Shown: positions 26,281-64,000 of the stretch, one piece after another | Layout of the letters: the number at the start of each line of letters is the position of its first letter | Numbering within the stretch: the first letter of the stretch is position 1 | Source: Squalus acanthias | Lineage: Eukaryota | DNA length: 64,000 nucleotides | Direction: 5' to 3' | Assembly: GCA_030390025.1 (NCBI GenBank) | Contig: CM059430.1 | Span: 72,974,001-73,038,000 of the forward strand | Program-made: the position numbers and the translations under genes | The notes under the pieces: generated by a model | Told to the model about the DNA's origin: nothing | Databases searched by the model: none | The model's input: only the letters and a program-made list of their open reading frames with translations

Positions 26281-26463
26281 CTGCCGGGAATACATAGTGT
26301 AGCAGAATATTTACTTTGAAAACAATAGGTCGCGAATTCTTAAATAGCAGAGAAAAGCACAATATGGTAATATAAATGAAACAATTAAATAACAATGGTT
26401 GTATGTTTGTCGATAATTCTCTACTCCTGAACCGGACCTAGTTCTATTAAATCGCTCAAATAC

Positions 26464-26530
26464 CTGTGCAGAAAATCCCCAGCGTGGCACAATACAGAAA
26501 TACGATATTCCGAACCAGAACTAAACCCAT
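26464..26530 (-). CDS. Gene A exon 1: signal peptide
   Basis: ATG at 26530, MGLVLVRNIVFLYCATLGIFCT, CAG|GTATT phase-1 donor; 183-nt intron to the V exon. Confidence 0.85.
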
Positions 26531-37700: not shown

Positions 37701-38610
37701 GACATATGAGGAGCAGTTGAGTAGATTGGGACTCTACTCATTGGAGTTCAGAAGAATGAAAGGCGATCTTATTGAAACGTATAAGATTGTGAAGGGGCTT
37801 GATCGGGTGGATGCGGTAAGGATGTTCCCAAGGATGGGTGAAACTAGAACTAGGGGGCATAATCTTAGAATAAGGGGCTGCTCTTTCAAAACTGAGATGA
37901 GGAGTAACTTCTTCACTCAGAGGGTAGTAGGTCTGTGGAATTTGCTACCCCAGGAAGCTGTGGAAGCTACATCATTAAATAAATTTAAAACAGAAATAGA
38001 CAGTTTCCTAGAAGTAAAGGGAATTAGGGGTTACGTTGAGCGGGCAGGAAATTGGACATGTGGCTGAGTTCGGATCGGTCAAGGCCCTGTGGGTGGCGGA
38101 GCGGGCCCAAGGGCTGAGTGGTCGGGTCCTGCTCCTACTTCTTGTGTTCTTTAGATTTGAGGTTAGGATCAGATCAGCCATGATCTTATTGGATGGCGGA
38201 GCAGGCTCGAGGGGCCGATTGGCCTACTCCTGCTCCTATTTCTTATGTCCTTATGTATCTCTGTAACCTCCTACAGCCCTAGAAAGGTCGGAGCTATCTG
38301 TGCTCCTTCAATGCTGACCTTATGCGCAACCCCAATTTTAATCGGTGCACCACAGGTGTCGATGCATTCAGCTAGCTGGGCACCAGACTCTGGAATTCCC
38401 TCGCTTAACCTCTGTGCCTCTATACCTCTCTTTCCTCCTTGAAAATGCTCCTTAAAACCTACCTCTTTGACCAAGTCTAATGGTCATCTGCCCTTATATC
38501 TCCTTCTGTGGCTCGGTGTCAAATTTTGTTCGATAATGCTCCTTTGAAATCCCTTGGGACATTTAACTACGTTAAAGACGCGCGTTATAAAAGCAAATTG
38601 CTTTTGTTCT
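34740..38610 (+). mobile_element. L2 3' portion split by the CR1 insertion at 35175-38255
   Basis: catggcctcgcccctccc (35155) and tatctctgtaacctcc (38256) rejoin to match the L2 copy at 16090-16125. Confidence 0.8.
35175..38255 (+). mobile_element. Near full-length CR1 ORF2 with long open stretches
   Basis: [53 protein letters not shown]; duplicated 3' tail. Confidence 0.95.
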
Positions 38611-38684
38611 ACATGGAGTTGTATTATATAATGTAAAGCAGCCCGCTTTATTGGCAGCCCATCCGCCACATTTTTTGTAACAAA

Positions 38685-41540: not shown

Positions 41541-43229
41541 GCACTGTTCTGTTATAATCCATTTACTGGTCCTGGTCTGAGTCATCATAGTTTCCGCAGT
41601 TGGACATTGCTTCAAACTTATTGGCGTGGGTAAATTGATCCGGGTGTTCTTGCTCTAAATTGTCATTCCTCACGCTTTTTGTCCTGAGATGGAATGAATT
41701 ATCTAATTAACTAATCAATGTAAACATTATTTGAGTAAGCGAGTTGTAAATCTCTGGAACCTTTTCCTTTATGAGACGGTGGAATAAGAAAGTTTTGATT
41801 AATGCAAATACAAATTTGATTTCTTTAGGAAAATAACAATTTGCGATATAGTATATGATCCATTTTAGGCATGATATGTGGTAACTGTCACATGACTGGG
41901 AGGAACAGCTGATTTTGGATCTATGGCTCGCAAAGCTTTCCAAAACGGGATGATTTTTCTCACACCATCTCTGGGTCCGTTGTGGACGATTTGCTAGAGA
42001 TTGTTTGCTGTGATTAGTCAATAACTCCATTACAATTGTATCATGTGACTATCAGGATGGTGGAAGCTGAAGATGGACTTTGGAATTTTTTTGTCCGGTA
42101 ATTCCGATCTTCATACGGGAGGTAGTACGCAGGCGTCTCAATACTGTGCACACTAGCGACAGAGCCTGAGAAGAGATGCTCCAACAATGCCCGACGAAAA
42201 GACAGCTGCAAAGGTAAGACATAACTAATCTTTTGGCAGTTTCAATACCAAGCTTTCCTGCCATAATTTGTTTTCTATCAACCTTCGAGAATTTATTAAT
42301 AGGCACTGTCAACCCTACTTCTATTAGTTCCTTTAAATCTCTGCAAGCTCCGTGGAAGCCTAAAGAAATTTAGCACAGATGTTTGCCAATATATCCGCTA
42401 TACAATTTTACCACATCCTGGATCTTATGTGCAACTGTAAGTTTAGCAATGCGCTGTGTCCAGACACTAGATAGTGCGTGGCTCCTGCTGCTATGGATTT
42501 TTCTACTTCGAAAACATTGTGCAATTAATTTAACTTTTAAAAAGACATATGAAGTGACTTTCCGGTTGGAGGGGGAGGGGTTGGTTTCTCCTGCCCGTCT
42601 GGAGTAACTGGCTTAAATTAACGCAAATCCGAGCAATAATTGGATACTGTGGGGTATAAAATCTTCTTCATCGGCAGTGTGAAATAGAGAAAAACGAATC
42701 AGCAGCTTATTTTGCACTATCGGCCGAAAATATTTATAGCCAGTGAATTTCAGAGAACCAAATGCTTTCTATGATAACATTACCCCTGCAACAGCGACAC
42801 AACCCAACTTGCAGTGTGTGTCGCAGCAGCTTATTTTCAGCATATACTCCGCCTCTGTAAAGTACAAATTTAAAGAACGATTACAGGCACTTTAACGCTT
42901 ACTTTTGCAGCAATATTCAAATTCACTCGGCTGCACTTTAACAAAATTCATCGCCCTGTGTTTTTAGTTGGCCTAATCACGACTCCAAAATCTCTAGTAT
43001 CTGCAGGTTTCAGAAAACTTTCCAAATGGTAATTAATTCCTGCCACCTTTCTCCCGCTGATTTGCAGTAAATTCGGCGGACAGTTCTTAGAAATCCTGAA
43101 TAAATTGTTAAATGTTGGTAATTGTAACCACCTCGAGAATGCCGCCCATTGTCTGCAAAGCAGACGTTAAAAATAAATATCTAAATTGTTTTTAAACTAA
43201 TTTAAAATTGTTTTCAAATCGCGTATGAA

Positions 43230-44075
43230 TATAAGAACGTAAGAAATAAGAGAAGGAGTAGATCATACGGCCTCTCGAGCCTGCTCCAGCATTCAATATC
43301 ATCATGGCTGATCATCTACCTCAACTCCACTTTCCCGCCCTATCTCCATATCGCTTGATTCCCCTACAGTCCAAAAATCTATCTATCTCAGCCTTGAATA
43401 TACTCAAAGGCTCAGCATTCACAGCCCTCAGGGGCAGAGAAATGCAAAGACACAGAAAACTCTAAGTGAAGAAATTCCTACTCATCTCGGTCTTAATTGG
43501 CCTATTGTTTATCCTGAGACTATGCCTCCTAATTCTAGACTGCTTTACCTGCATGCTAGTTTTCTGTGTTTCTTGCATAAGGACACCCGAGTCTCTCAGA
43601 ACAGCAACATTGAGAGTTGCTCACCATATAATAGTATTCTGTTTTTCTATTCATCCTACTAAAGTGAATAACCTCACATTTCCCTACATTATATTCCATC
43701 TGCCACCTTACTGCCCACTCACTTAGTCTATCTATATCCCTTTGCAGAATCTTTAGAGGAAGAAAAAAGAACATAAGATCATAAGAACATAAGAAATAGG
43801 AGCAGGAGTAGACCATTTGTTCCCTCGACCCCTTCTCCGCCATTCAATAAGATCATTGCTGATCTTTTACCTCATCTCCACTTTCCTGCAATCTCCCCAT
43901 ATCCCTTGATTCCCTTAAAAGCAAAAAATCTATCGATCTTTGTCTTGAATACACTCAACCACCGAACCTCCATTGCCCTCTGGGTTAGATAATTCGAAAG
44001 ATTCACCACCCTCTGAGTGAAGACGTTTCTACTTATCTCAGTCCTAAATGGCCGACCCCTTATTCGGAGATGAAG
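43230..44075 (-). mobile_element. Cluster of CR1 3' fragments
   Basis: Tails at 43230 and 43770; WQMEYNVGKC; NVFTQRVVNL. Confidence 0.85.
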
Positions 44076-44084
44076 AGAAATGTT

Positions 44085-45290
44085 GTGAATGTTTCGCACA
44101 TTCAGATGAAGTTACTTCAGCTTTGACTTATTTCTATTTTTTCCTGATGTCATCTTAGTCACTGCTGCCTTAATAGCTTTTTTATTCTCTCTGTCCCTTC
44201 CTGACACGCTCTGCTTTTTTTACCCAAAACTCTACTCTGCTCTAGAGCAGTGACATTTCTCTCACTGCTTTTAAATTTACTCTTTCGTGAATCCTCCCAC
44301 CACCCCTTCATTCGTTTTTTAGCCCTGTCTACTGCCCTAGTTATACGGTTCGCCAGGACACTGGTCCAGCCCGGTTTAAGTGGAGCCCATCCGAATGGAA
44401 CAGCTCCCTATCTCCCCAGTACTGGTGCCAGTGTCCCATGAACTGAACCCCTTCCTTCCACACCATTCTTTAAGTCACGCATTTAAACCTCTAATCTGTT
44501 TGTCTCTATGCCAATTTGCGCATGGCTCATTTAACAATCCAGAGATTATTACTTTGAGGTTCTGCTTTATAATTTGGATCCTAGCCCCTCAAACTCCCTC
44601 GGCAGAACATCATTCCTAATTCTACCTATATCGGTGGTTCCTTTGTGGACCACGACAACTGGATCCTCCCCCTCCAACTCCAAGTTCTCCTCCAGCTGCG
44701 AGGAAATGTCTTTAACCCTGGTACCGGGCAGGCAACACAAACTTCGGAACTCTCGGTCACGGCTGCAGAGAACAGTATCTATCCTCCTTACTATAATCTT
44801 CCCTACCACAAATACATTCCGTTTCCCTCCCTCCAGTTCAATAGCCTCCTGCAGCATAGAGCCATGGTCAGCTTGTGCATCCATCCTGCAGGCTTATCCC
44901 TTATCCACACAGGCAGCAAGAACCTCAAACCTGTTGGACAAGGGCCAAGGCTGAGGCTCCTCCAGCACTGCATCTGAGGTCCCCTTACCTGCCTGATTTG
45001 CAGTCACAGCCTCCTGTCACTGACCACTAACGGGACCTGTACCCCTAATTAACCTAAGCGGTGTGACTGCTTCCTGGATCAAAGTGTCCAGGTAACTCTC
45101 TCCAAACCTGATGCCCCGCAATGTCTGTACCTCAGACTCCAGCTGAGAAACTCTGAGCAGAAGTTCCTCAAGATGCAGGCAATTACTGCAAATGTGGTTG
45201 TTCGGGTTCTTAATGTTCTCCACAACTCCCACATGCTGCAGTTGCGGCACACCACCTGCACCGCCAACCCGATACGACCTTGTTTTATTT
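44085..45290 (-). mobile_element. CR1 5' portion with ORF1 (Cys-rich N-terminus and esterase-like domain)
   Basis: VVCRNCSMWE...HICSNCLHLEELLLRVSQLE; VFVVGKIIVR...LCCLPGTRVKDI...VVVHKGTTDIG. Confidence 0.85.
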
Positions 45291-45894
45291 AATTAAACTG
45301 AATTAAATTTGTAATTAGGTAACTTAGTTTACAGTGTAGTTTCTAGACTAATTACTTGATCTAGATTAAGTTATCGGTACTGAAATTAAATATCTAACTT
45401 CAACACAAAGTAATACAAGTAGTGTAGGCAAGAAACAATAACTCCTTTCCCATTTTCTCCGAATTCCCACTCTTTCCAGTTCCCAGATAAAATACTCATT
45501 TCAACTACACACCGTTTTAATCCAGCTCTGTACAGACCGCTCTATGCTTTGCGGACCTGTTTCCTCTCATATGCTAGGTGCCTCACTCAATTTACAAGCA
45601 TCTCACTGAAATATACACATGCGTTTTATTTCAATAGCTCTGCATAAGTTATACTTTTAGATTGGTTGAACGTTAATGAATAGTGCGGTGTTATAAATTA
45701 TGTATTGTAGACTTTGTACCCGTCCATTGGCGTGAAATCGGGGATACCTATTGAGCTCCACTGGAAATCAGAATTGTTAGCCATTTCTCTAGGGATTCTT
45801 TCCGTCGTTGGAGTCATTTCAACTTTTTGGACCGTATAAATTACGATAGCGGATCGGCCGCCTGTTGCATATCCTGCAGCATTTTCTTTTTAAT

Positions 45895-47267
45895 GACTTT
45901 AAGGAGTCCATTATTAAGGAAGCAGCAGCAGGACATTTAGAAAATCATAATACAGTCAAGCAGAGTCAGCATGATTTTATGAAAGGGAAATCATGTTTGA
46001 CAAATTTGCTGGAGTTCCTTGAGGATGTAACGAGCAGGGTGGACAAAGCTGAACCAGTAGATGTAGTGTATTTGGATTTCCAGAAGGCATTCGATAAGTT
46101 GTCACAGAAAAGGTTACTGCATAAGATAAGAGCTCATGGGGTTGGGGGTAATATATTAGAATGGACAGAAGATTGGTTAACTAACAGAAAACAGAGAGTC
46201 GGGCTAAATGGGTCATTTTCCATTTGGCAAACGGTAACTATTGGGGTGCCATAGGGATCAGTGCTGGATAATCAACTATTTACAATCTATATTAATGACT
46301 TAGATGAAGGGACCGAGTGTAATGCAACCAAATTTGCAGATGATACAAAGATAGTTGGGAAAGCAAGTTGTGAAGAGGAAACAAAGAATCTGCATAGGGA
46401 TATAGACAGGCTAAGTGAGTGGGCAAACATTTGGCAGATGGAGTATAATGTGGGAAAATGTGAGGTTATCCACTTTGGTAGGAAAAATAAAAAAAGCAAA
46501 TTATTATTTAAATTGATAGAGATTACAAAATGCTGCAATAGAGAGGCACCTGGGGTCCTTGTGCATGAAACACAAAAAGTTAACATGCAGTTACAGCAAG
46601 TAATCCAGAAGGGAAATGGAATGTTTGCCTTTATTGCAAGGGGGTTGGAGTAAAAAAGCAGGGTGGTCCTGCTACAACTGCAGAAGATATTGATCAGCCC
46701 ACACCTGGAGTACTGCGTACAGTTTTGGTCTCCTTATTTAATGAGAGATATACTTGCATTGGAGGCAGTTCAGAGAAGTTCCACAAGGTTGATTGCTGAG
46801 ATGAAGGGTTTGACTTATAAAGAAAGTTTGAGCAGGTTGGGCCTATGCTCATTGGAGTTTAGAAGAATGACAGGTGATCTTATTGAAGCATATAAGATAC
46901 TGAGGGGGTTCGACAAGGTAGATGCAGAGAAGATGCTTCCCCTTATTGTGGAATCTCGAACTTGGGGGCATAGTTTCAGAAGAATGGGTCGCCCATTTAA
47001 AACTGAGATGAGAATGAATTTCTTCTCTCAGTGGGTCGTAAATCTGTGGAATTATCTGCCCCAGAGAGCTGTGGAGGCTGGGGCATTGAATATATTTAAG
47101 GTGGAGGTAGATAGATTTTTGAACAATAAGGGAGTGAAAGGTTATGGGGAGCGTGCAGGGAAATGGAGCTGAGCTCAAGATCAGATCAGCCATGATCTCA
47201 TTAAATGGCAGAGCAGGCTCGAGGGCGTAAATGGCTTACTCCTGCTCCTATTTCTTATGTTCTTATG
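45895..47267 (+). mobile_element. 5'-truncated CR1 LINE
   Basis: [29 protein letters not shown]; tail tttcttatgttcttatg. Confidence 0.93.
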
Positions 47268-50200
47268 AAAGGAAAATGAAGCCAGGTGTTCAACGTGTGA
47301 CCAACCTAAGTTATGGCGGAAGATCGGCGGAAAGCCCACGGAAATTTGGGTAGATTGTGTTCCTGCAAGAAAACTTGAGGCATTGCGGTCATTAACCAGG
47401 GTTTTACATCCCGTTGGACTATCACCATTCTTTCCCCTAACGTCTGGGGAAGGTAAAAAGAAAAACTGCGAAAACGGCCGTTACCAAACCTTGTCGACGA
47501 TTCGCCTGGGGATTGCACCCGTGTTCTGTGGGTTCACGATAGGATTCTCGTTGTTGATGATTCATTTTCAAGGCGTCTTCGTTTTTAAAGCTGTAAAACT
47601 TGATGTTGATTTTTTCTACCAGGTTTGCATTTCTCAAATAGACCCCAACAATGTTTGAAATTTAAAACAGGAAAAGGTACAGCTCGTTTTATTGAATTAA
47701 ATTACATTGAAACAGAAGTGATATTCCAACATGTAAAATAGTGAAATGTTTTCTATAAAGGAACAGTTACCAACGATTTTCAACAGGCCCATTTCGCTGG
47801 TGGTTTTTGGGCATTTTGTTACAGTTACAATACTCAGAAAAATACAAGGGTCCCAAGAATATCTTAATTTAATAAATGTTTTGACATTCACTTATTGGCA
47901 AAACTTTATGATTTGATCATACGTGAGCAGGTAAACACATGGAAGAACTTTCATGTTAAATAAAAACATTATCCGTTTGTGCTAACCTTCTGAAATTTAC
48001 CGTTTCTTGTTGGATTCCCTGAACTCCGAGGCATGAGATCTGGAGAATAATCGCAAAAATTGCAGTTGTAAATTTTTTCAAAAGACAATTCAGCTGCACT
48101 TATTTAAGACCAATGTCAGGCCTTGTCCATTACCATAACATCTCGTTCCGTTTTTTAGCGTCAAAGCTACTTCACAACGGGCCGTCAATCCTCGAAATAT
48201 GCAGCCGTTTAGCTGCCATCCCCTCCACTCTCTGTGTACCGACACTCTAAAATACAGTGCACTCACTGTTAAATAGCTAATGAGTGAATGGTTAGATGTT
48301 TGTAGCTATTGGCTTTTCACCCATGGTCCAACGTACTTGCAGTTGTAATGCCACAATATTTGCTATAAATAAGCAGACTTTCCGTCCTACAATAAAACAG
48401 GGACAAAAAAGCATCAAATTTCACTTGTAAAATGAAGTAAAGGAAATTCGCAGCAGATCATTTACCGATAATAGAACGAAAATGCATGATACAACATTTC
48501 AGGCATTTCAGATGAAGGGGAAATTCCCGAAATGTTTTGAACCTGTCTCGCACTTCCAAATTTGTTGTCACGCTAGATACCCTAAACTAATAAAGAACTG
48601 ATGATTTCATTGTTAAACATTTCAAATGACCCAGCGCACTAACCTTTCGAAATTGTGAATACCAGATTTCCAATACCGTTTGTGTGGGAAATTGCTGCCT
48701 AATATCATTCCAGAATGACGTAGCTCTCATTTTAAGATCTTGTCTTGTTCTAAATTCCTCCACAAGAGGAAATAGCTCCTGTTCTGTATCTACACTTACT
48801 AATTACTTGATCATTTTAAACACCTCAAGTAAATAAGTCCTCAACGTTCTAATCTCAAGCCAGCATCAGCCACGCTTAAGAAACATGTCCTCATGAGACT
48901 TAAGCGATGGCTAGGTTTACCACTCCCAAACAAGTCCAAGTATGTATTTTACCACCGAGGGAGTTGATAGTGTAAAATGTGCGTTATCCACTCAGCCGCC
49001 CGTTGTACATCTCTGCCGATTCTCATTTCCATGAAACCGTCCATGTTATAATAACAGACAAAGTCACAATTACCCCCAACAAGTCTTAAGAATTAGTCAT
49101 ATATTTTGCGCGCACGTGCTATCCATTCACTGGGATCAAAGGAGAGGAAATAGGAACCTAGTTGCCCGGTAGCATCGGCAGGCTTTGTGATGATTCAGAT
49201 AATGCCAATCGAAACCAATTTCATGATAGCCTTACTATTTTAGAATAAGAGCGTTGTTTCATTTGCTGGACTACTGACTAGACACTTGCTGATGAATAAA
49301 GTTGTACCCATTACATCCTTTCATCTTTTTACACCTAATCTGCATATTTAAATTGGCATTCCCCTAATCAATCCACACACCACGACACGCTTATTAAATG
49401 GGGTTTTCTAGTCATCACTATTTTGTACCTATGATGCTCGCTCACACGTCAATTTTAAAATTAATCACTGTTGACTATGCTGTGCGAAATTTTTTTGTAG
49501 TTTCAGCCCATCAAAAATGTAGTGTTATACCATTTATCTACGTGGAAGTATGTCTCAACCAGACATACATCGTCGCATTCAACGATTCTGTAGCTTTACC
49601 AACAACTACACATGCATTATATTCTTACTTGCACATAAAATAGCAATACTCCCAAACCATAGACCGCTCTTCTCTGTAATAGGGCAACAATGATACGGGA
49701 GCGTCTCTAAGGTGGTGTTCCCTACGGCTTGTGAAGTTCTAACATTTAACTTTTTTACTTACTGGGAATTTCATAAATTAATTCATAGTCATCCCCTTTT
49801 CTGACTACAATTCGCAAAATACTCACCCTGCAACTGTATGTTATAAAGTTCTCTTAAATATGCTATATATTGCTTATTGTGTAATGATGTATTGGATCAT
49901 TTTATTTCAGTTAAAATACTGATTTTATATATACGTTTCAGTTTCAGCCAGTTTATTGAAAAGTAACATTTGCTGAAAGAGTATAAAAAGAAAACCCTTC
50001 TAAAACTTCTTGCATCACATTGTGCATAACTTCCATAAGCTGGCAGAATGTTCGTGACGGTCCTTTTCTTCTGAACTATAGACAAATCAGTTTCCCTACA
50101 ACCATTTAGTCCTTTCCACAACCCTTTGAAGATATATGGTATCGCGGCCGTTTCCAGGATCCAGTTTAACGAGTGGCGCTGTAAACTGTGACTCTCTTCA

Positions 50201-51229
50201 CTTCTTTGGTATTGGCTTTTCATCTGAGCTCATGGAATACTCCACGTCTCTGGCTTTCACCAGCATACAATCGGCTGGAGATAATCGATCTCTTTTGTTA
50301 GTGATATATTTCAGACAGTCACATCAAACAGCGATTCGCTCACCCTGCCAATTATGTCCTACTGACAAGTCTATTGTTATAATCGTTTAAAATATTTAGT
50401 TTAGCCGGATTAATGTTGCACTCATTATCTTTTAAATCCGCTCTATATCGAGGCATCTATTCCACACTTCATTTCGAGATATCTTGGTGTATTGATGAAG
50501 GGAATCACAGGCTTTGCTACACCGGTACCTCGCCAAGAGACTTCGCATATACACGCATGAAGGCGAGAAGTTGCGTGACTTACCCACTTAACACAGCAGA
50601 AAAAGTTAGGGTTAGTGCATGTGGATAGCAGAATTTTTAACGGCATGATAAGTTGTAATTACTGCCACTCAATCTTTGGCTCTGCGAATTTAGTTTTGCA
50701 AGTGTTTAGTCTCATTCCTTCAGAATTTAATTATTGTTCGAGATTTTTCCAAAAAAAATTGTTTAAACTTTTTCCGTCTCTTTTTTCTCTCCCTTAATCT
50801 CATATTTATTTCCCTCTTTTTATTTCGCTTTCTGCATGTGATTTTACTTTAAATTAAATATTCTAATTTATACTTCCTGGCTTGGAATCATCGTGCATCA
50901 GTTAGGAGACTTCAATCTGATTGAAGAGACACGCTGTTTCTTGGCCCATATACCACCGATCCCCTGTAGAGGGCACTGCTCTGAAAATGATCTCTAAATA
51001 CCGTAAACTGGCGCTCAAAAACCCAGGTAAATTCTGTTAGCGGAACAAACGGTGAGTATCATTCCTTTGCCGGTGACGGCAAAATCCGTGACAGTGCGTC
51101 ATTCTTCCACAAGCGTTTTCACTTGAAGAACAGTATACAATTGATTTGAAATTTCAGGACAGAATGGTCCTAAAATTCCACGCAAGTTCTCCTGATCTCC
51201 CGTGGCAGGAGACGGCAGAACCGAAGGGA

Positions 51230-53430
51230 AATAGGGAGTAGGCCATTTAGCTCCTCGAGCCTGTTCTGCCACTCATTGAGATCATGGCTGATCTCTGACA
51301 TCATTCCATATACCCGTCTTTGCCCCATGGATTTTAATACCTTTGGTTAACAACAAACTAACAATTTCAGATTTAAAACTAACAATAGGCCCAGCATCAA
51401 CTCTCATTTGCAGAAGATAATTCCAAACTTCTACCAACCTTTGCGTTTAGAAGTGTTTCTTAACTTCACTCTTGAAAGACCTGGATCTATTTTTTTGGCC
51501 TAGATATCTCAAACAGCGGAATTATTTCATCTCTATCTACCCGATCAGTGCCCCGTAATATCTTGAAATCTTCGATAAAATCAACCCTTAGCCTTCTAAA
51601 TTTCAAGGAATACAATCGATATTGAGGAATCGCTCCTCGTAATTTAACCCTTGGAGTCCAGGTATCATGCTGGCAAATCTACGCTGCACTCGCTCCAAGA
51701 CCAATATATCCTTCCTAATATGTGGTGCCCAGAGCTGAACACAGAACTGCAGGTGTAGTCTAACCAGGGATGTGTATAGCTGTAGCATGAATTCTAACCC
51801 CTTTTATTCTAGTCCTCTGGATATAAAGGCTAGCAATCAATTAACTGTTATGATTTTTTGTACCTTTCCATGACACTTTAATGCTCTACGTACATGGAGC
51901 CCTACGTCTATTTGGCCATCACTGCTTCAAGCTTTTCCCCATTTAGATTTTTTGTACCTTTCCGTGACACTTTAATGCTCTACGTACATGGAGCCCTACG
52001 TCTATTTGGCCATCACTGCTTCAAGCTTTTCCCCATTTAGAAGTTACTCTGTTCTATCATTTACGGTTCAAAGTGCATGACCTCATACTAACCGATATTG
52101 AAATTCATTTGCCACAATTTTGCCCATGCACTTATTCTATTAATATCTCTTTGTAATTTATGCTTCTACCTACACTGCTTACAATGCCGCTTATATATTT
52201 GTAATCGGAGAACTTGGATGTGGCTCTCTATCCCGTCAACTAAGTCGTGAATAGTTGACGCCCCAGCACAGATCCTTGTGGGACGCTGCTAATCACATCC
52301 TGCCAATTAGATAACCTGCCAATGAACCCTGCTCTCTTTCTCCTGCCGCTCAACCGATTTCCTAACCAGGTCAATAATTTGTCCTTATTTCCATAAGCTT
52401 TACTTTAGATAACAATCTCTTATGAGGGATTTTATCGAAACCCTTCTCAAAGTCCATATCAATAACATCCATCGACATTAATGATCCACTACTTCAATCA
52501 CTTCTTCAAAAAATTCTATCAGATTCGTCAGGCATGAATTACCCTTTACAAATATTTCATCAGCTGAACATTTTCAAGGTGCTTATTCACTCTATCCTTA
52601 ATTACAGACTCTACTGACTTCCCGACAAGAGATGTTAGGCTACATGGTCTGGATTTCCCTGCTTTCCCTCGCTCACCTTTCTTAAATAGCCGAGTGATTA
52701 GTTCAATTTTCCAAACAGAAGGAACGGTTCTTGGGTCGCGACTAATTTGTACGATCATATTTCGGGCATCTGCAATGTTTTCATCTATTTCCTTTTAAAC
52801 CCTGGGATGAAAACCAGCTGTTCTGGGGGATTTTTCACTCTTTAGTGCCATTATTATCGTCATTACTATTAATTTGCTTACGTTAATTATGGTGAGTCGT
52901 TGTCCCGGATTCAATATTATTTTCCTTGGGATGTCCAGCATGATATCCGCTTCCTCTACTGTAAATACTGACACAAAGTAAATATTTAACAAATCCACCA
53001 TTTACTTATTTTCATTTATAATATCAACATTATCAGTTTTTAAGGGGCCCAATCTGCTCTTAATAAACCTCTTTTTCCTGAAATAATTTTGAATGTTTTT
53101 TTTTGTTTTAGATATTCCTTTCAAGTTTCATTTCATATTCCCTTTTTTGTAGCTCGTACTACCTGTTTCGTCATCATTTACTATATTTTGTATCTCTACG
53201 GTTTGCCAGGATTAGTGTTATTTTTTGAACACTTGCATGTTTTTTCTTTTAATTTTATGATGTACCTTACTTGTTTCGTCACCCGTGGCTGTTTTTTCTT
53301 TTGGAAGTTCAGCTTTCGCACCTTTGGGGAATAAACGGGTTTTGTATCACGTTAAATTCTTTTTTGAACACCTCCCACTAATCTTCTGTCGTTTTACCCA
53401 TTAACAGATTTGCCATGTTTAATATAGCTA
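51230..53430 (-). mobile_element. Decayed CR1 ORF2 (continues briefly at 54290-54325)
   Basis: LQLYTSLVRLHLQFCVQLWAP; LFKKGERGKAGKSRPCSLTS; KSPRTAGFHPRV. Confidence 0.85.
51852..52039. repeat. 94-bp direct tandem duplication with one mismatch
   Basis: gattttttgtacctttcc[a/g]tgacac...ccccattta occurs twice (51852-51945, 51946-52039). Confidence 0.95.
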
Positions 53431-53433
53431 CAC

Positions 53434-54288
53434 GAGGGTGAAATTCAGTATCGCCCCAGGGGGCGCAATTATCGGCCGGGCGCAAAGATTAGCGCCTGGC
53501 GCTAATTATCGTCTCCAACTGCAAACTTGACTTTTATCGCCTCTGGAGGTGTTTGGAGCGCTAAATCAGGCCCTTCACACCTGTCTTAAGGCGCAAAGGC
53601 CGAGGAGGGAGGTGCTACCTCAGAGCGTTGGCGAAGCTCATGTGATGTCAGTCAGCAATGGAACACACCAACAATGGCGCCGGCCAGTTCTTAAAGTGAA
53701 GGGTTGATCTTGCTTTCCATCCACATCCTGCTCATTGCTGCCTTGAATCTCGGCCTGAAGAGACCTGTACATGAAATCTGCTGGAAAGAACAATGGAGAG
53801 TAGCAGGGAAAGAGCTCAGAGTGCAGCACCCACAGTCTCTTCTAAATCGATACAAGGAAGGGCAAATCAAAATGAAACTGCAAAGTGCAGCTCACTACCT
53901 AAAACTCCTTTACACTGCGTTGAATCTCTCCAGAAGTCTGTCTCTCTCTCTCTCAGAATGCCTGGTTCAAAAATGTCACCAACAATAAAAGGCAGGAAGC
54001 GGTCGCCTTTAAATAGCACTCCCCTAGTCCCTTCCTGACTGCAAAACGCTCCGCTCAACCTGTCGTTGCTAGCGGCAGGCAGTAAGGCAGGGGGACTTGC
54101 ACACTCGACTGACGTCACGTCTGCCGGCGCAGGAGATCGTGACGGTAGTGTTTAGCGCTGCCTCATAATGTCTAGTTAATTTCACGAGAGGCGCAAATAT
54201 CGCCGCGCCCGAGCACTAGTTTCTTTGCGCCCCATTAGCGTCCTCTTAAGGCGCTAACGGGCGCCGCAACCAACTGAATTTTTCCCCC
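53434..54288. mobile_element. Non-autonomous Harbinger-like element with TIRs
   Basis: GAGGGTGAAATTCAGT ... ACTGAATTTTTCCCCC (13/16 match); GC-rich subterminal GGCGC motifs like those at 6150-6355. Confidence 0.7.
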
Positions 54289-54335
54289 ATAGTATCTGTT
54301 TCATCCACTTGAAGTCGGCCATACTTAAACCTACA

Positions 54336-54521
54336 GGCCTAGAAATTCGTTTCGGGTGATGGCGGAAATTGGGCGGTATCGGATCCGCCGCCTGCTCCAC
54401 GCAGCAGTTGCTATTCATTTCCAATGCAGTCAATGGAACTGAATATAAGGTGTTGCGTATAACAGGTTGTCGATCCGAAACCGCCCGTATTGCTTCACCA
54501 CCCGAGACGAATTTCTAGGCC
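54336..54521. mobile_element. 186-bp fold-back MITE
   Basis: Perfect 14-bp TIR ggcctagaaattcg / cgaatttctaggcc, with imperfect pairing continuing inward. Confidence 0.85.
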
Positions 54522-54663
54522 AGAATTTTCGCTCTTTCGCATTTCTGTCTGTGTATGCCTTCCGGTAGGGTTTTCCCTGGGAGATCGAGTTAAAGACTAA
54601 ATTCAACCGTTAATCAAAATTACTATGTATAATCGCAATGGAATGTGCGTTTTAATTATGACC

Positions 54664-54748
54664 TCAATATTCCACCGGAGCTCTCTCGCTGTCCTGCCAT
54701 ACGTGCCCTCCGGCTACAACGTTTTTCCTGGTCTCTTTACCTGGTCTC
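54664..54748 (-). CDS. Gene B candidate cytoplasmic exon
   Basis: ttttcccctttcatttgagcag| acceptor; phase 2 continues the TM exon as RRPGKETRKNVVAGGHVWQDSERAPVEY*. Confidence 0.5.
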
Positions 54749-55099
54749 CTGCTCAAATGAAAGGGGAAAATTAAGAGAGCCCTTGCAAATCTCCCATGCT
54801 TAGAAGCGTTTGATAATCAGATAATAGTAACACCAATCCTAATATCGGTGGGCTACCAAGATAATTGCAAGAGAAACGGTACAAATGATCGTTTTCGGAA
54901 TTTATGCAATTTTATAGCCTTTTCACCTGTACCCGCTCCCCCCAAACCTACAGCGGAAGGCAGGTGACAGCTCCGTGGAACATTGGGACCAATATATGCG
55001 TTCAACCGAATTCTAAATTGATATGGAATTCAGGCATTGGAAGAAGGTCCGTGCAGAATAACTGAAAACCAAGCATAAGTTATAGGCTGAAATGTAATA

Positions 55100-55800
55100 G
55101 AGAAATTGGGATGTTGTGAATGGCGCACAGCGAATTTCTGAGAACGATCTGTGGCAGGATCAGTTGACGAGGCTTTTAAAATCATACAGTATCATAAGCT
55201 TTATAAATAGAGGCATATATTACAAAAGCAAGGAAGTTATATGAAACCTTTATAAATTACTGGTTATGTCTCAGTTGGAGTAGTATGTACAATTCTGGAC
55301 ACCACACTTTAGGCAGGATGCTAAGGATTTGCAGAAGGAGCAGACGAGGTTTGCGAGTGTGGTGCCAGGGATGAGGGACTTCCGTTATGTGGGGAGATTA
55401 AAGAAGCTAGCGTCATTCTACTTACAGCAGAGAGGGCTAACGGGAGATTTAATACAGGTGTTCAAAATTAGTACATTAGGTGCAACTCCTTCCACTGACA
55501 GGAGGGTCGTTAACCGGAGGATAAAGGTTTTAGATAAATGGCGAAAGAAGCAGAGAGGCATTACGAGAATTTGTTTCGGCAGCAAGTTGTTATGATGTGG
55601 AATGCTTTGCCTTAAAGGGCAGTGGAAGGAGATTCAATCGTAACTTTCAAAGGGGAATTGGATAAATACTTGAAAAGGAATCCAATGCAGGGTTGTGGTG
55701 AAATAGCAGACGACTGGGAATAAATGAATAGCATTTTTAAAGAGCCTGCAACTGATCTATGGGCTGAATGACCTCTTTCTGCGCTGTATGATGCTATGTA
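55100..55800 (+). mobile_element. Decayed CR1 3' fragment
   Basis: aattctggacaccacactttagg; GDLIQVFKI. Confidence 0.75.
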
Positions 55801-56005
55801 TATAAGGCATGTCCCATTGAGGAACTGAGGATACAATGATGGACGATTTCAACTGCTGTGTCCAATCAGCATTAAACTGCCGCCCTGATATCACTTCCTG
55901 GATGTTCTCATGGTTTCAGGTTTTTCATCATTATGTGTTTATTGAGTATTAATCTCTCCAATTCATTAGCAATTGTGCTTTTTCCATGTTATCAATTTCT
56001 CTTAC

Positions 56006-56120
56006 CTGCAGAAGTTATCTGGTTTAATGTGGTTGAGGATGATCATCATTAGTAGAATAATTACCAATATCCCCACGCTGGATCGATAAATCAGGTGGAA
56101 TGGGAAGACAGCGTGATAAC
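56006..56120 (-). CDS. Gene B transmembrane exon
   Basis: ccttttccag| acceptor and CAG|GTAAG donor, 115 nt, phase 1/2; GYHAVFPFHLIYRSSVGILVIILLMMIILNHIKPDNFC. Confidence 0.88.
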
Positions 56121-56523
56121 CTGGAAAAGGTACAAGGCAATCCATGATTCACAGCTCACTTCCAACAGCCATACCAATCGGATGATATTTTTTCTTCCGA
56201 ATAACTAATGAAAAATTATCCGCTTGATGGTTTAGAATGTATCTTTCTGTTTTGTATGAAAGAACCGCTTCAATTTAAATCTTTTAGAATAAAAGCACAT
56301 TGGAGCAAAACTTCCTCCTATTGCTATGTGTCAGGAAACCGTCAAAGTTTTGGCAAAGATTGTCTACCTTCGTCGTTTTTTAGCGGTACTATAAACAAAA
56401 TCAAAAGAAAATAATTAAAAAGACGCTAGACGCAATGAGCATACGAAATCTTTCAAAACGCATTTATAAATCGATCAGAGAGTATCGCAGCTAATTAGTG
56501 GAACACAATCGAACAATATTAAT

Positions 56524-57256
56524 GGGCCGGATTTTCCGATCGGAGGCTTCCTGCGTGCGATTCCTCCAGTTCGGAAAAATCCACAAACATACCTGCTGGC
56601 TCCATAGGTCCCGATACTTCCGATCCTGGGCCTCTCCTTCTCCGAGCGCGCAGAGGCCCAGGTAGCCCAGGGGCGCAGGCGGTTCGCAAGCGTTCTTGGG
56701 ATCACGTGGGTCATGAGGAAACAAAGAAGGGAATTCACCTGCACACTTTTGACAGGTCTCTACGCATAGATCTGTCAAAAGTATGAATGGGGATCACTTA
56801 AAAAGCACAGTTAAATATTAAATACATTAAAAAACAGGTTTTTAAAATTACATTAAATTATTATATTTTAAACAAAAATGTAATTTTTTGAAAAAAATCA
56901 TTAAAGTTTTGTACGCGGCTAAAAATAAACTTACCTTTTTTAAAGTATTGTTAAATGATAAATGAGTGGAAAACAATTATTTAAAAAAAAATTTAAACAC
57001 CTATGCTGGTAAAAGCAGGCTTAACTCCCGCTTTTACCAGGCGTAAGTTTTTTAAAGGTTTTCAGCGGGTGGAGTTTGTGCAGAAAGCGGACCTCTCCAC
57101 CGCAGAGGCCCTTCTCCCGGGCAGGCGGATGATCTGTCAAGAGAATTCTTGACAGATTGGAAATGCCGGGTTTTAGCGCATGCGCTTCGCATGCCTGAAT
57201 CCGGCACTTGCGAAGGCCCTCCGGTTGCGTACACACCTTGTCGGAAAATCCGGCTC
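56524..57256. mobile_element. Complete MITE in the gene B C1-TM intron
   Basis: aat|gggccggattttccga ... tcggaaaatccggctc|att. Confidence 0.88.
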
Positions 57257-57515
57257 ATTAGCATTATGGACACTTTCCTTTTGAAAACTGGCATTCTCCA
57301 GAAGTTGAATTGGAACAGCACTTCCTATATATCATTAGATAGATAGCCAGAACGGAAAAGGCATGTGTCCCATTACTGTAAATTGCGATAAAACGAAGTT
57401 TTAGAGATAAAATGATAATATGCAAATCAGCTGCTACAGTCGGTTAGGTGCAATAGAAAATAGATTTATGTGGGGGAAAAACAGAACGATACAAGTGCGA
57501 CGCGTGTTAAAATAT

Positions 57516-57812
57516 CATCTTTGTAGCTGGTGTAGATGACACTGGCTGGAATTAGCAGAGAAACATGCGACACTTCACAGGTATAAAGTACCCCGCTCTG
57601 GACAGGATGTGTCTCTTCTAAAGAGCTGGAAACTTCATACAGTCCCTCCTCATTTAAATGTTGTACCGTTCCAAATCCAGACATAAGTTCGAATACCATC
57701 TTTATGCCAAGTGAGTTTAAAGTCCTTCGGGTAAAATCCGGCCGTTCTGCACTGGAGGTTGAGAAAAGAAGGCGAAACTCCTTCAGATGCTTTGGGGAGA
57801 ATCGTCAGTGGA
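57516..57812 (-). pseudogene. Gene B Ig C1-set exon, disrupted; first ~10 nt and acceptor lie in the gap
   Basis: LNLQCRTAGFYPKDFKLTWHKDG, then one extra base near 57694, then FELMSG...YTCEVSHVSL; expected donor reads G|ATATT. Confidence 0.8.
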
Positions 57813-57949
57813 NNNNNNNNNNNNNNNNNNNNNNNNNNNNNNNNNNNNNNNNNNNNNNNNNNNNNNNNNNNNNNNNNNNNNNNNNNNNNNNNNNNNNNNN
57901 NNNNNNNNNNNNNNNNNNNNNNNNNNNNNNNNNNNNNNNNNNNNNNNNN
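57813..57949. other. Assembly gap
   Basis: Run of N. Confidence 1.
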
Positions 57950-58489
57950 AGGAAAATGTTTTGATTTAAATCTACCTAATGATTAATACAATAAAATAAG
58001 TCCTGTTATGATTTTAAAATTATAACTGACTTATCATTGACTAGGATGCAGCCATATCGATTGATTTCTTTATTATATTTTCGAAATTGTTTTTTCCGAT
58101 TTCCTCCTCTAACGCTACTAAATTATAACTTTATAAATATTCTCTGTTGTTAAATCTAGCAGAATGAATTTGACATAATTGTCCCATATATATTATTATT
58201 TCTACTTTTAGATCTGCGTGTTGTACTTGAAACTGTTTCAGTTATGCAGATTGTGTTCTGATATTAGGGACTTCAGGTACTCAGTTACAGCTCAGTCAAG
58301 ACGAAATGCTCTTGCTACTGAATAACAGGAACAGGAAGCAAAAGAAAAAAGTTTCTGATCAAAAATTAAAGTATTTTCTTAGCTAATCTCCTCTTTCCAT
58401 ACAGTAAATGGGATCCACTTTGAATACAATAATAAATTAATTAATGCATGTTTAAATAAATAAAGAAATACATAGTTGATGAATATGTT

Positions 58490-58784
58490 ACATATATATA
58501 TATATAGATAGATAGAAAGATAGATAGACCGATAGANNNNNNNNNNNNNNNNNNNNNNNNNNNNNNNNNNNNNNNNNNNNNNNNNNNNNNNNNNNNNNNN
58601 NNNNNNNNNNNNNNNNNNNNNNNNNNNNNNNNNNNNNNNNNNNNNNNNNNNNNNNNNNNNNNNNNNNNNNNNNNNNNNNNNNNNNNNNNNNNNNNNNNNN
58701 NNNNNNNNNNNNNNNNNNNNNNNNNNNNNNNNNNNNNNNNNNNNNNNNNNNNNNNNNNNNNNNNNNNNNNNNNNNNNNNNNNNN
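58490..58784. other. (TA)n/(TAGA)n microsatellite running into an assembly gap (58537-58784)
   Basis: Direct inspection. Confidence 0.95.
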
Positions 58785-59336
58785 AGATGCATGTGGAAGA
58801 ATAATTGTAAATAGGACTTGTCAAGTCAAACTAAAATTGATATGGAATGAATTACTTTGAAGTGCAATGACTGTTATATTAGCAAATACGAACTAGGTTA
58901 TGCATTTAATTCCTGGAATGGGAATAAAGCCAATCTTTAATTCCTGGAATTTCCTGATTGTATGTTATCATCATTGAACCTAAATTATGGCCCAGACCAT
59001 GAAGTGGGGAAAATAACAGATGCATATTTTATCTATGAAATCTGATGAAAAGTAAGCTCATTTCCTTAATTGATACGACCGTTAGAGTAGCAGAATTGGC
59101 CTTTCAATGAGGTCAAAGTAGTGAACCATTCATTGAAATGTAAGACGATTAACGTATAACGTGTTCTTAAGTCGCTATATAATGAGATGGCATTAACGAG
59201 ATTTACAATAACAAATGCATATAACATAGATACTTATTTCCGTGGAAACAACGTCTGTAACAACAATAAAATCATATTTTTGTTTTCCTTCTTAAATATC
59301 GTTTGAATATCGATGTAGATACAACTCGACCCATAC

Positions 59337-59648
59337 CAGATACAGCCAGTTGTGCACCAGTTGCGTTTCCTATAGATTTTTCCTGATATGTCACTGCACA
59401 GTAATACATTCCGGCGTCCAATATATTCACATTCAGAATGTGAAAGTTGCTAGAGCTTCTCTTTGTTTGGAACACTTTCCCACTGTCTGGTTGTAAGTAT
59501 CTGTTGTACCCGTGTCTCCACCAGGACACCATAATTTCTCCGAGCTCTTGATAAAGCGGGAAAGTGCAATAGAAAGAAACATTTGAACCAATGAGCGTGA
59601 TCTTTCGTTCATTGAGCTGAGTTACTTTGGCCGATGTTCCAAGAAACA
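59337..59648 (-). CDS. Gene B exon 2: end of signal peptide and Ig V-set domain with J-like G-strand
   Basis: ttttttgacag| acceptor and G|GTATG donor, 312 nt, phase 1/1; KVTQ, NVSFYC, VSWWR, ILNVNILDAGMYYCAV, GNATGAQLAVS. Confidence 0.95.
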
Positions 59649-60017
59649 CTGTCAAAAAAATAAAAAATAATTCGATTACATCGTTCATACATGGGATGTG
59701 TGGCATCTTCTGCCACAATAATACCATCCACCCAGCTAACCAATATATTATTGATTGCATGTACAGATCTGTCTGACTAGTTTAACGCATGCGAATGTGT
59801 TTCTTCGCTAAAGTAGCATGCTTAGTCCCACGTTTATCCCTTATTTTTTCTGATTTATACTGAGAAACACGTGCGATAAAAAAATACATAAACAGAGGAA
59901 ACAACTCAGGAACAGTAGCAATAGCTAAAAATGAACATTATAGCACATGTAAAGGTTTGCTTCATGTATTGTTTCCTGTTTCGCAAAGACGATATATAAC
60001 AAACAAGATTTTTTTAC

Positions 60018-60072
60018 CTGGAGAAAGAATGCCCAGGATGAACATGCGCCGCAGGACATCACCCACAACCAT
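60018..60072 (-). CDS. Gene B exon 1: signal peptide
   Basis: MVVGDVLRRMFILGILSP, CAG|GTAAA phase-1 donor; joins VFLGTSA/KVTQ; an in-frame upstream ATG exists at 60144. Confidence 0.8.
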
Positions 60073-60159
60073 ATCGATAAGATCACTTTTGGAAAATGAG
60101 AGCGGAGTTGCAGAACATGTGAGTAAAATGGAAATGGTGGGCATTATAATCTGGTAAGT

Positions 60160-60225
60160 ACCTATGACGTGAACATTACATATTTCGATCAACGCCCCTT
60201 TCAAAATTCCACTTCCTCCTGAGCG
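60160..60225 (-). promoter_or_regulatory. Putative proximal promoter of gene B (ETS/PU.1 box and CRE-like site)
   Basis: GAGGAAGT at 60218-60211 and TGACGT at 60165-60170, 90-150 nt upstream of the ATG. Confidence 0.4.
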
Positions 60226-61729
60226 TTGTTTTTAGAAGAAATTAATGTCAAGAACTGATCCATCTGTAACAAAGACTGGGGTAGATTATGAAGTCGTGCA
60301 CGACTAAAAATGCCCATCATGATTCAGTTCTTCACCGGATTTGCATGAATGAGTTCAGCTATTGTTGTAGGAGATTTATTTTTAAGGCAGATGCAATAAT
60401 TCTACAGAGGTTCAAAATTATTTTCGGATCCCTTTTAGAAACGTAAGTGCAAGATGATGTAGACTATTTTAATCACTTCAAATTAATAATTTTAATGATT
60501 AATTATTGCTGATGAATCCAAAAGTTCGTTGGACCCATTGTTGATTTAGCGATGAACACTTAAATTTAAATAAGATTTTATTCTCATGCTAATTCATCGC
60601 GGGAAATATAGTTTGGAAATGATAAGGTGCTCTGATAAATTGTTGCGTAAAATAACAATTACAACAATAGGTTCATGCTTCAATTTGCATACGATATAGA
60701 GAGTAAACAAAATGTATTTCAATGAACATGCAGAGGTGTAAGTTTTTTTCAAATTACTTTTACAGATGTGAGTACCAAATGTAGACGTAGGTAAATTGTT
60801 AGTATAGTATACACAGTAAGGTAGCAACATCAAGTGCACATCAATGTCAAAGTCACAATATAATTCGGAGTCACGTCTGTCATTGAGAATAGAACACTGA
60901 TTAGATAGAGTGTAAAACCTCTTCTGCCTGGAACATAGGTCCAGGAATACATATAGCACAGCTCAACAAGAATTGGGCACTTAATAAATTTACGGGGGGA
61001 AATTGAGTAGGAAATATAAGCTTCCAGATGTTGGTGTGACCTTATTGTATCTGCTATTATGAGGTGTTAAGTGGCTTACTTCAGTTATTTGGCATTCATA
61101 CCTCTTAATGTTATACGATAGGATTCACTGCCACACTTCTCTGCTCGTAACTTTGGTGGAGTGGATCTCTTCACAAGTATATGAGGACGCACGCACAAAG
61201 CTCTCTCCTGGTCGGTATAAACAATTCGCAGCCTGCTTTATAAATAAAGTCTGTGTGGCTTCGATTCACACATCCCCGATTTGGGTTTGCGATCAACAAT
61301 GTAATAGAAGTCCAACCGAAACTAAACCATAAGGTGAAGCAAGCAGATGGAAACATGACAGAAAAGTGATTATTCCAGCAGGGCTCTGCGGATGCGAGGG
61401 CTACCGAAAAGCGTTTCTATTATGTTACAATCATAACTTTTAGTTACCTTTTAAATTGTAGTGATTTTATTTACGAGTAGATAATAAAGTCCTTTAACAA
61501 CGGTGTCCTGAGAAGAAAATGAGCCAAGATTATGCCACAGAGGATTCCGCCAATGTCCCACCGATGTTGCTGCAGAAGTTGTTGGTGAAACGTTTTCATT
61601 TGCAGCGCATCTCCAGAAAATGTCAGTAAAATGAAATGTGCATTTAATTGGAGGTAGTAGTTTGAAAAAAAATCTATTACAAGTGGTTCCAATCTGCGCC
61701 TGTTGGGGGAGATGCGACCTCTTGCAAAG

Positions 61730-62320
61730 AAAGCATGCTGGATCCTTGACATTGTAAATAGAGGCATAGCGTACCAGAGCAGGTACATTTTACTAATCCT
61801 TTATAAATCACTGGTTAGGCCTCATAAGGAGTATTGTGTAAAATTCTGGGCACCACACTTAGGAAGAATGCCAAGGCCTTAGAAAATCATAGGCACTTCA
61901 GTTATCTGGAGAATAGATACGCTGGAATTGTTCTCCTCAGTGCAGAGAAGGTTCATAGGAGATTTAATAGAGGTGTTCAAAATTATGTGTGGTTTTGAGA
62001 GAGTTAATAAGGATAAACTGCTTACACCTGTGGGATAGTCGGTAACCAGAGGACAGGGATTTAAGATAATTGGCCAAAGCACCAGAGGTGAGATGAGATT
62101 TTTTTTTACGCAGCGGGTTGTTATATTGTAGAATGCATTGCCTGAAGGGGGTGGGAGCCTATGGAATAGTACATTTCAAAATGGAATTTTAGTTATACTT
62201 GCAAAGGATAGCTTTGCACGGTTTTGGAGAAAGAAAAAGGAAGTGCGACTAATTGGATAGTTGTTTCCAGTAGCCGGCGGATGCAGTTTGGGCCGAATGC
62301 CTAATTCTGTGCTGCATGCT
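61730..62320 (+). mobile_element. Decayed CR1 3' fragment
   Basis: ggttaggcctcataaggagtattgtgtaaaattctgggcacc; ggagatttaatagaggtgttcaaaatt. Confidence 0.8.
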
Positions 62321-63504
62321 TCTTTGAATCTTAAGCAAATGGCTACAGAAACGCAAGCCACTTAATCATTTGGGACTCGCATTTTTTATTTGCCTTTTAC
62401 AGGTGAATTTTGTGGGTCTTGAGGTAGGTTCTAAAAGGGGCACAAGAACTGTCGCACAGTTGTTTCTTTCGTAGTCCGGCCCTGTTAATACAAAAAATAG
62501 CCAAGTGGTGAAGAAGGAAATCTACCCAGCTTGTGTTCCTAATATTAGCAACATGAGAACGATGAAAGATAATGGGTTCGTTCATTGACATTTTATCGGC
62601 ATGATTTTGCGGGAATCCCCACTCTCTCGCCGTTAATTTCGATGGAAACTCTGGAGAAACCACGTAAGCGGCCAATTTACGTGGTCTCTGTGGGGTATTC
62701 GACAAATCTGTCGTCGACCCGCCGCGGAAGTTCCAAAGAAATATTTTGGGATTTCCAGGCGTGTAATTGGTCTGCGAAGCACCGCCAGGAACAACTATGC
62801 AGCACACAAAGACCAAAAGAGTGACATCTCTGGGCTTTGCTGGTAACTACAGAAAATATAAATTTAAACGAAAATGGCAATTACTTCCAATTATATCTTG
62901 ACTAATGGGGGTAGATTTATAAACACGTACTGCTGTCATTTATTGGAAAGAGGGTAGGAGAAAGAAAATGATATATTTTTAAATTGGAGGGACAGTAATT
63001 TCATAAATATAAGTCTTTATGTTACTGGAGACTCTTTTGCTTTTGGCAGTGTAATCCACAAATTGTACGGACTGCAGAAGGATGGTTCAATAAAGAGCTG
63101 ATTCCGATGTTCCTCAATTTATTTGACACGAATCCTGCTCTGAAAGCAACATAATATTTACGTTACAAATATGAAGTCAGTTATTGAATTATTACTCTTA
63201 TACCGACAGCAAATCTGGACTTTTTGATTACCTCTGGATAAGTTTAAAGCAAAAAGCACAACCAACACATGGAACAAGAATTTCGGTACATGTGTTACCA
63301 ATGTAGTAATAAAAATATTTTGAAATACTTTACAAATTTTACGTTATTTCTAGACTTGTTTTTAATGGAGAGAAAATTTCGCTGCAAAGAACCTAATACT
63401 AAAATCAAATCAACGTTTTACGTCCTTTTGGTATTACAGTTATCTTAATTATGTATACACTATTCTGCATGAGATAAGGTTTGTTTTCCCCTATTTTTTA
63501 GTAT

Positions 63505-63745
63505 TTTGTATACAGGGCTATTGCTCTACATGGGTGCACAGCATATTTTCAACAATGATGTACAGACTATTGTTAAAATAGTGGATATTACATTGTAAAA
63601 ATTAGTGCACAGAATACTCTGAACAATGGTGTACAGAACATCCTCAACAATGATATATAGAACATTCCCAACAACGGTGTCCTGAACATTGTCAACATTG
63701 GTATACAGGGCATTCTCATCAGCAGTGTACAGAACATTCCCGCAG
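63505..63745. repeat. Degenerate ~24-bp minisatellite
   Basis: gtacagaacattctcaacaatggt-like units in tandem. Confidence 0.7.
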
Positions 63746-63759
63746 GGATCTATGTGTCC

Positions 63760-64000
63760 CGCAGCGATCTGTGCTGGGACCTCAAATATTCACAGTATTT
63801 ATTAACGACTTCGATGATGGCATAGAAAGTCATATATCCAAATTTGCAGATGAGACAATGATAGGTGGCATTGTAGACAGTTTAGATGAAAGCATAAAAT
63901 TACAAAGGGATATTTATAGATTAAGTGAATGGTCAAAACACTGGCAAATGGATCTCTTTCCTCCTTTAAGACGCTCTTTAAAACCTACCTCTTTGACCAA
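63760..64000 (+). mobile_element. CR1 RT fragment followed by an L2 3' fragment
   Basis: gtgctgggacctcaa...aaatttgcagatga; then ctttaagacgctcttaaaacctacctctttgaccaa. Confidence 0.75.

Follow-up and report, generated by a model that had tools for sequence, protein, structure and literature searches.

Two lesions lie in the C1 exon of gene B, a receptor gene of Squalus acanthias in which every other exon and splice site is intact, and the question is whether this gene is a pseudogene, a living receptor reduced to a single V domain, or a product of assembly error. The window (the whole stretch of DNA analysed, 64,000 nucleotides) corresponds to C6:72974001-73038000 of a 3.7-Gb genome, C6 being the contig that carries it. 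Two genes lie on its minus strand: gene A, whose V is near 26 kb, and gene B, whose V is near 59.5 kb. Both have a leader, a single VJ-type V exon, a single C1-set exon and a TM exon. The parts of gene B are listed below; X1 (C6:74.59 Mb) and X2 (C6:73.186 Mb) are two paralogs about 90% identical to it over the C1 exon, and gene C lies at C6:73.07 Mb.

60018..60072, minus strand: leader exon, 55 nt, phase 1, intact, X-type
59337..59648, minus strand: V exon, single-exon VJ-type, 312 nt, phase 1-1, open
57519..57812, minus strand: C1-set exon, broken, readable in part in the window
57691, minus strand: extra base (frameshift), present in contigs of DNA runs X1, X3 and X4, absent from paralogs X1 and X2 and from the organism D contig
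57650..57652, minus strand: premature TGA, caused by the frameshift
57517..57518, minus strand: lost C1 donor, AT replaces GT
56006..56120, minus strand: TM exon, 115 nt, phase 1-2, Arg codon at 56085-56083, gene-C type
50220..50274, minus strand: terminal cytoplasmic exon, phase 2, 17 residues and a stop, no ITIM, intact
49957-49952, minus strand: AATAAA after the terminal exon

The leader, V and TM exons are open and have canonical splice sites, the leader, V and C1 junctions are all phase 1, and a V-to-TM join is in frame, as the initial annotation had it. A phase-1 reading of the terminal exon was ruled out, since phase 2 is the only frame that joins on to the TM exon and reaches the stop that gene B has in common with gene C and gene Y (74.34 Mb). 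In gene A (window 16530-26531, minus strand), the V, C1 and Arg-TM exons are open and the V domain has Gly for the B-strand cysteine; both canonical cysteines are absent from V domains related to gene A at C6:72.487 and 73.204 Mb. The window also contains two minisatellites, one of period 28 (23 copies, 9465-10119) and one of period 24 (9 copies, 63533-63739).

Both C1 lesions are real in the DNA. There is indeed one extra base, and the single best gap position against paralog X1 puts it at the minus-strand C at 57691 rather than near 57694 as first annotated; the premature TGA at 57652-57650 is exactly where it was claimed to be. The donor loss also stands, with a different position: a G>A change at 57518 leaves AT at 57518-57517. 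The AT at 57515-57514 that had been taken for the lesion is AT in the paralogs as well, whose donor reads AAG/GTGATA. Paralogs X1 and X2 have an open C1 frame and a GT donor, and neither lesion is present in them. The C1 exon had been said to border an N gap, which is not the case: the genome locus contains 0 N, and an AG, with 1 mismatch in 40 against X1, stands at the place homologous to the X1 acceptor.

The lesions were compared with contigs of DNA runs, not with raw reads. Contigs spanning 57557-57734 in runs X1, X3 and X4 show no gap at the extra base, which is thereby seen in two samples from two studies (runs X1 and X4 are one sample, run X3 is another sample and study). Contigs spanning 57183-57571 in runs X1 and X4, that is, in one sample, have no other letter at the donor, and they carry an intron indel at 57476 that is absent from the window and therefore represent another haplotype. 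The contig of organism D is without the extra base, so the same comparison could detect a missing base. That both lesions are assembly or base-call errors could be argued from the use of contigs only, from one sample that may be the source of the assembly and from run X3, which was read to 55% and does not cover the donor. Against this stand the ungapped extra base in three runs, the donor AT on a second haplotype, the missing base detected in organism D and the lack of N at the locus, and we consider such errors exceedingly improbable. The assembly-error option offered by the initial annotation is accordingly ruled out, both lesions having been found in contigs of independent DNA runs. An intact C1 allele may segregate, as contigs drop rare variants.

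The initial annotation overlooked that gene B is a chimera of two subfamilies. The features that bear on its origin are as follows.

57257..64000, minus strand: X-derived 5' segment, blocks 75-91% identical to X1 and X2, with homology extending past the window to about C6:73045500
56515..57265, no strand assigned: high-copy element bounded by 25-nt inverted repeats (88%), with TAA/TTA at either end, at the chimera junction
38256..56522, minus strand: gene-C-like 3' segment, collinear blocks 83-87% identical to the gene C tail (C6:73.07 Mb)

Upstream of 57257, gene B tracks X1 and X2 for about 14 kb; downstream of 56522, it tracks the gene C tail for about 18 kb, and the C1 exon of gene C is only 73% like that of gene B. 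The X homology stops at the TAA before the left inverted repeat and the gene C homology starts at the TTA after the right one, which places the element of ~750 bp at the junction to the base. As judged from these alignments, gene B is a chimera whose halves switch at the two ends of one terminal-inverted-repeat element. The element is probably repeated, mobile DNA; its inverted repeats and TAA/TTA ends may be those of a PIF/Harbinger-type non-autonomous DNA transposon. The join could have come about by recombination between two element copies or by a transposase-driven rearrangement, and it would have taken place after the 5' half of gene B had split from X1 and X2 (about 4.6% divergence on the B lineage if change was clock-like). 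We regard the chimeric origin of gene B as a solid new result. No publication on this junction, or on the V-C1 family of ~100 genes described below, was found in a literature coverage that was incomplete, and likely shark papers may already describe the family or class it among shark NCR3 subtypes.

The tails joined to this ectodomain differ. In paralog X1, an uncharged TM lies 0.8 kb after C1 and is followed by a linker exon and two exons with LTYAAL/LTYASL (ITIM-like) and TxYxxV motifs; its TM region is single-copy (1 match). Paralog X2 stays with X1 for 360 further bases; from a 4-nt microhomology onward it matches the tail of a gene at 72.57 Mb (90-95%), and its Arg TM is a different one; its terminal exon was not found. 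The V proteins of X1 and X2 are identical over 103 residues. In the assembled DNA, one ectodomain thus stands before three tails: near-identical ectodomains are followed by an uncharged TM and ITIM exons in X1 versus an Arg TM in X2 and B. X1 presumably represents the ancestral state, since B and X2 each have a junction to another gene's tail and no such junction was found in X1. With a front half that matches an ITIM-bearing receptor and a back half made up of an Arg-TM and a short tail, gene B would have been the activating counterpart of a presumably inhibitory receptor, and its Arg-TM would have paired with an ITAM adaptor. The inhibitory and activating roles of X1, X2 and B are those that we infer from motifs, by analogy with receptors described elsewhere (PMC3210942, PMC6514059). 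X2 (C6:73185983) and X1 (74590625), 1.4 Mb apart and on opposite strands, are a clean candidate pair. A one-base frameshift is seen in gene C (C6:73080224-73080496), in the G strand of its V exon.

Gene B belongs to a large cluster. Searched with its V exon, the genome gave at least 108 matches, of which at least 103 were on C6 between 57 and 77 Mb (5 of the 108 rows were excluded before counting); with a paralog C1 as query, at least 150 rows came down to at least 124 distinct places on C6 after exclusion of 26 rows (24 on other contigs, 2 as second pieces of split exons). A C1 exon lies within 15 kb of 99 of the 103 V exons on C6. The other four comprise one with a frameshifted C1 nearby, one fragment and two with stops, and no intact V-only gene was present among the 103. 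The genes inspected have a single C1 each. Among the 99 V-C1 pairs, a stop was found in V only in 9 and in C1 only in 5, with no bias to C1; this count is blind to frameshifts, so gene B itself was scored as open in it. A broken V or C1 is present in 8 of 19 genes inspected, gene B alone having been compared with DNA runs. The broken genes are as follows.

C6:72.557 Mb: V or C1 broken
C6:72.900 Mb: V or C1 broken
C6:72.934 Mb: V or C1 broken
Gene B: C1 broken
C6:73.051 Mb: V or C1 broken
Gene C: V broken
C6:73.206 Mb: V or C1 broken
C6:74.438 Mb: V or C1 broken

The V-C1 genes are thus both a clustered multigene family and rich in pseudogenes. One of them, at C6:73204437-73215257, has an open V, a stop in C1 and then Arg TM and ITIM-like exons, and is a second gene with an open V and a broken C1 and possibly a mixed tail. 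In the Y-type genes at C6:74351659-74535795, the F-strand cysteine is replaced (Ser or Ala) in four V domains with open frames, and in the gene at 74.35 Mb a further, degenerate copy of V follows 0.5 kb downstream. A 400-bp stretch at C6:73056339-73056738 is 99% identical to one at 74352541-74352939 and is likely a recently active mobile element.

The closest named protein relatives of the window are shark proteins, namely RefSeq models from Heterodontus, Heptranchias, Carcharodon, Scyliorhinus, Mustelus, Hemiscyllium and Cetorhinus, whose automatic names are mutually inconsistent (SIRPalpha-like, tapasin-related-like, B7H6-like and Ig-lambda-like). Word-index protein searches with the single V and C1 exons gave no matches, and searches of PDB sequences, of the Atlas and by fold gave generic Ig matches only.

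The confinement of both lesions to C1, on which the initial annotation had laid weight, is a fact that does not go beyond chance. When targets are weighted by exon, C1 makes up 37% of the lesion target; the probability that both of two lesions fall in C1 is 0.134, and that both fall in any one exon 0.315. Over 2876 aligned non-coding sites, there are 190 substitutions on the B path, 71 on that of X1 and 78 on that of X2, with 0.044 frameshifting indels per substitution. The probability of no lesion elsewhere is 0.075 if gene B has been dead throughout its lineage, 0.27 if for half of it and 0.52 if for a quarter. The lesion pattern leans mildly to a living remainder of gene B, without showing it.

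The V domain is where a living and a dead gene B would differ. Between the V exons of X1 and X2 there is one synonymous change in 306 nt and no nonsynonymous change, against a neutral expectation of 12.3 nonsynonymous. The B path has 10 nonsynonymous changes versus 11.0 expected if the B lineage alone is neutral, given clock-like change and constraint on the X stem; its contrast with X1 versus X2 has a binomial P of 0.003. With 5 synonymous and 10 nonsynonymous changes, the ratio in the gene B V is below neutral for the whole path at P = 0.086; it does not differ from that of the C1 exon (Fisher P = 0.70), whose 4 synonymous and 13 nonsynonymous changes are the neutral ratio.

The gene B V differs from that of X1 at 11 residues, among them R56G and G95A at family-conserved positions. 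Among the 17 positions that at least 85% of 63 other V domains (50 from the same genome and 13 from other sharks) conserve, gene B is off at 2 and X1 at none; 20 of the 63 are also off at two or more. R56 is kept in 58 and G95 in 56 of these 63, and the gene B residue is found in none. Position 56 we take to be the D-strand arginine that forms a salt bridge in V domains. The V donor of gene B differs from that of X1 and X2 at +4 and scores 7.3 versus 11.5. Not all of the V changes can be polarised, and at positions 58, 75 and 92 gene B looks ancestral. The TM exon has 1 lineage-specific change versus 5 in gene C. A structure model suggests that the gene B V still folds (pLDDT 85), a score that is alignment-driven and weak as evidence. 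Activating receptors may diverge under positive selection, which would counter a reading of these changes as drift.

Since the V domain changes at a near-neutral rate and has lost two family-conserved residues, and since broken genes are common nearby (8 of 19), we conclude that gene B is probably a pseudogene. On this reading, a first disabling hit in C1 would have been followed by drift, a second hit and the beginning of V domain decay. Its transcript would skip C1, or keep C1 and stop at 57652 as a likely target of nonsense-mediated decay.

The initial annotation raised survival through exon loss as a possibility. Its V-TM isoform is in frame and has precedent in other sharks; survival is the less likely reading, as the V exon shows no sign of constraint, no V-only gene is intact among the 103 and stops are as common in V as in C1 (9 vs 5). 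In detail, loss of the donor would force C1 to be skipped, V would splice to TM, the frameshift would be a later passenger, and gene B would live as a single-V Arg-TM receptor of about 178 residues, which we think possible but rather unlikely. The intact remaining exons and splice sites and the permissive phases argue for it, and the lesion pattern favours it about threefold, by our own estimate, once the first hit was in C1. C1-skipped models are annotated in the family as well (2 of 11 proteins returned, P0131 and P0157). P0131 corresponds to P0153 with precisely the C1 domain removed (isoforms X2 and X1 of Scyliorhinus canicula, respectively), and C1 is also missing from P0157 (Heterodontus francisci, isoform X4); P0131 and P0157 are RefSeq models, both with ITIM-type tails. 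The near-neutral change with R56G and G95A in V, the C1 found within 15 kb of 99 of 103 V exons (the other four being broken or partial), the still intact C1 acceptor and the mere 10 or so residues between V and the membrane segment argue against it. The RefSeq isoform models that skip C1 or TM (P0131/P0153, P0157 and P0155) suggest modular splicing in the family.

A living gene B would have been remodelled twice, by a transposon-mediated tail swap from inhibitory to activating and then by loss of the C1 donor that left a single-V Arg-TM receptor, a course of events to which we give a minor share of the probability. The further proposal that the NKp30 layout arose again in this way, outside the MHC and from a VJ-C1 ancestor, is doubtful to the same degree.

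Two other products would leave part of C1 in place. One depends on an internal donor in C1.

57695..57696, minus strand: weak candidate cryptic donor GT, absent from paralogs X1 and X2, the only phase-1 GT upstream of the extra base

Splicing from the GT at 57696 to TM would give V plus about 40 C1 residues (with one free cysteine) as a stalk and avoid both lesions. X1 and X2 have GC at this place and the gene B acceptor is intact, both of which fit such use. The site scores 4.5, whereas family donors mostly reach 6.6-11.9 (with a matrix built on 33 sites, some 5 of which are probably misassigned). A phase-1 GT occupies the corresponding place in 6 of 14 other C1 exons and is thus nothing special, and V decay applies equally; we hold this splice to be improbable. 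The other product would be secreted, a V domain followed by a short piece of C1 up to the premature stop. The leader, V and C1 acceptor needed for it are intact, and translation would stop before the TM exon is reached, but the C1-TM intron contains no AATAAA or ATTAAA, so the transcript would splice onward and likely be degraded, which makes a secreted stub slightly more improbable still.

The runs consulted for transcripts were X15-X17, guessed to be RNA (same species label, one study, contigs, 85% likeness). They gave no cover of the gene B leader, V and tail exon bins, and the V-to-TM joint (59337>56120) was not among the joints listed for them (15 of 57). Paralog V exons of 94% identity were also unseen, and the RNA tissue of these runs is therefore uninformative. 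In organism B (run X6), low-depth pieces cover both gene B halves at 88-98%, none of which bridges the junction or the lesions.

Gene B had been likened to NKp30/NCR3. The C1-skipped product would resemble it in combining a lone V domain with a TM arginine and a short tail; NKp30 is described as MHC-linked and is without C1 (PMC6514059, PMC12227049). What holds of the comparison is the outline only (Arg TM and short tail); gene B has a C1 exon and belongs to about 100 V-C1 genes with ITIM members. None of 50 PF00129 matches (MHC class I) was on C6; they were on C26 and small contigs instead. NKp30 was absent from 14 of 14 single-sequence matches, from the best 60 of 745 profile matches and from the fold-search rows listed, all of which were generic Ig domains.

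SIRP is like the V-C1 family in its joined VJ domain and C1-set domain and in having inhibitory and charged-TM members; it differs in having two C1 domains and a Lys, where the V-C1 family has one C1 and an Arg. SIRP chains were among the C1 matches, ranked below Ig chains. PRARP, VJC1 and UrIg also have an unsplit VJ exon followed by a C1-set exon (PMC10751288, PMC11599192); unlike the gene B family, UrIg is a secreted protein with three C1 domains, and nine are present in UrIg2.

The pairs of KIR, Ly49, PIR and KLRI receptors are like X1, X2 and B in combining near-identical ligand-binding domains with ITIM tails or with a TM arginine and a short tail, and the activating copies are described as short-lived and recurrently formed from inhibitory ones (PMC3210942). 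X1, X2 and B differ in belonging to another superfamily branch (single VJ exon and C1-set) in a cartilaginous fish and in that one ectodomain received new tails in two separate swaps, whose junctions are exact to the base.

For the origin of gene B, the closest parallel is FCGR2C. FCGR2C likewise joins an inhibitory ectodomain to an activating tail by unequal recombination in a receptor cluster (PMC6563257); unlike gene B, it is the product of paralogs that closely resemble each other and itself carries an ITAM-like motif, whereas gene B unites subfamilies with C1 exons 73% alike, joined at a repeat element, and has an Arg-TM.

The lesions of gene B are thus most likely ordinary decay. In the triplet X1, X2 and B, a single ligand-binding module would have gained activating tails on two separate occasions besides its inhibitory one, and the older of the activating copies seems to be dying. 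This is a pattern of birth and death as for the mammalian KIR, Ly49 and FCGR2C genes, here in a cartilaginous fish and in a family of about 100 VJ-C1 genes that do not rearrange. Null alleles of FCGR2C are common. If a V-TM transcript exists, gene B would offer a case, open to test, of a VJ-C1 receptor reduced to the NKp30 layout.
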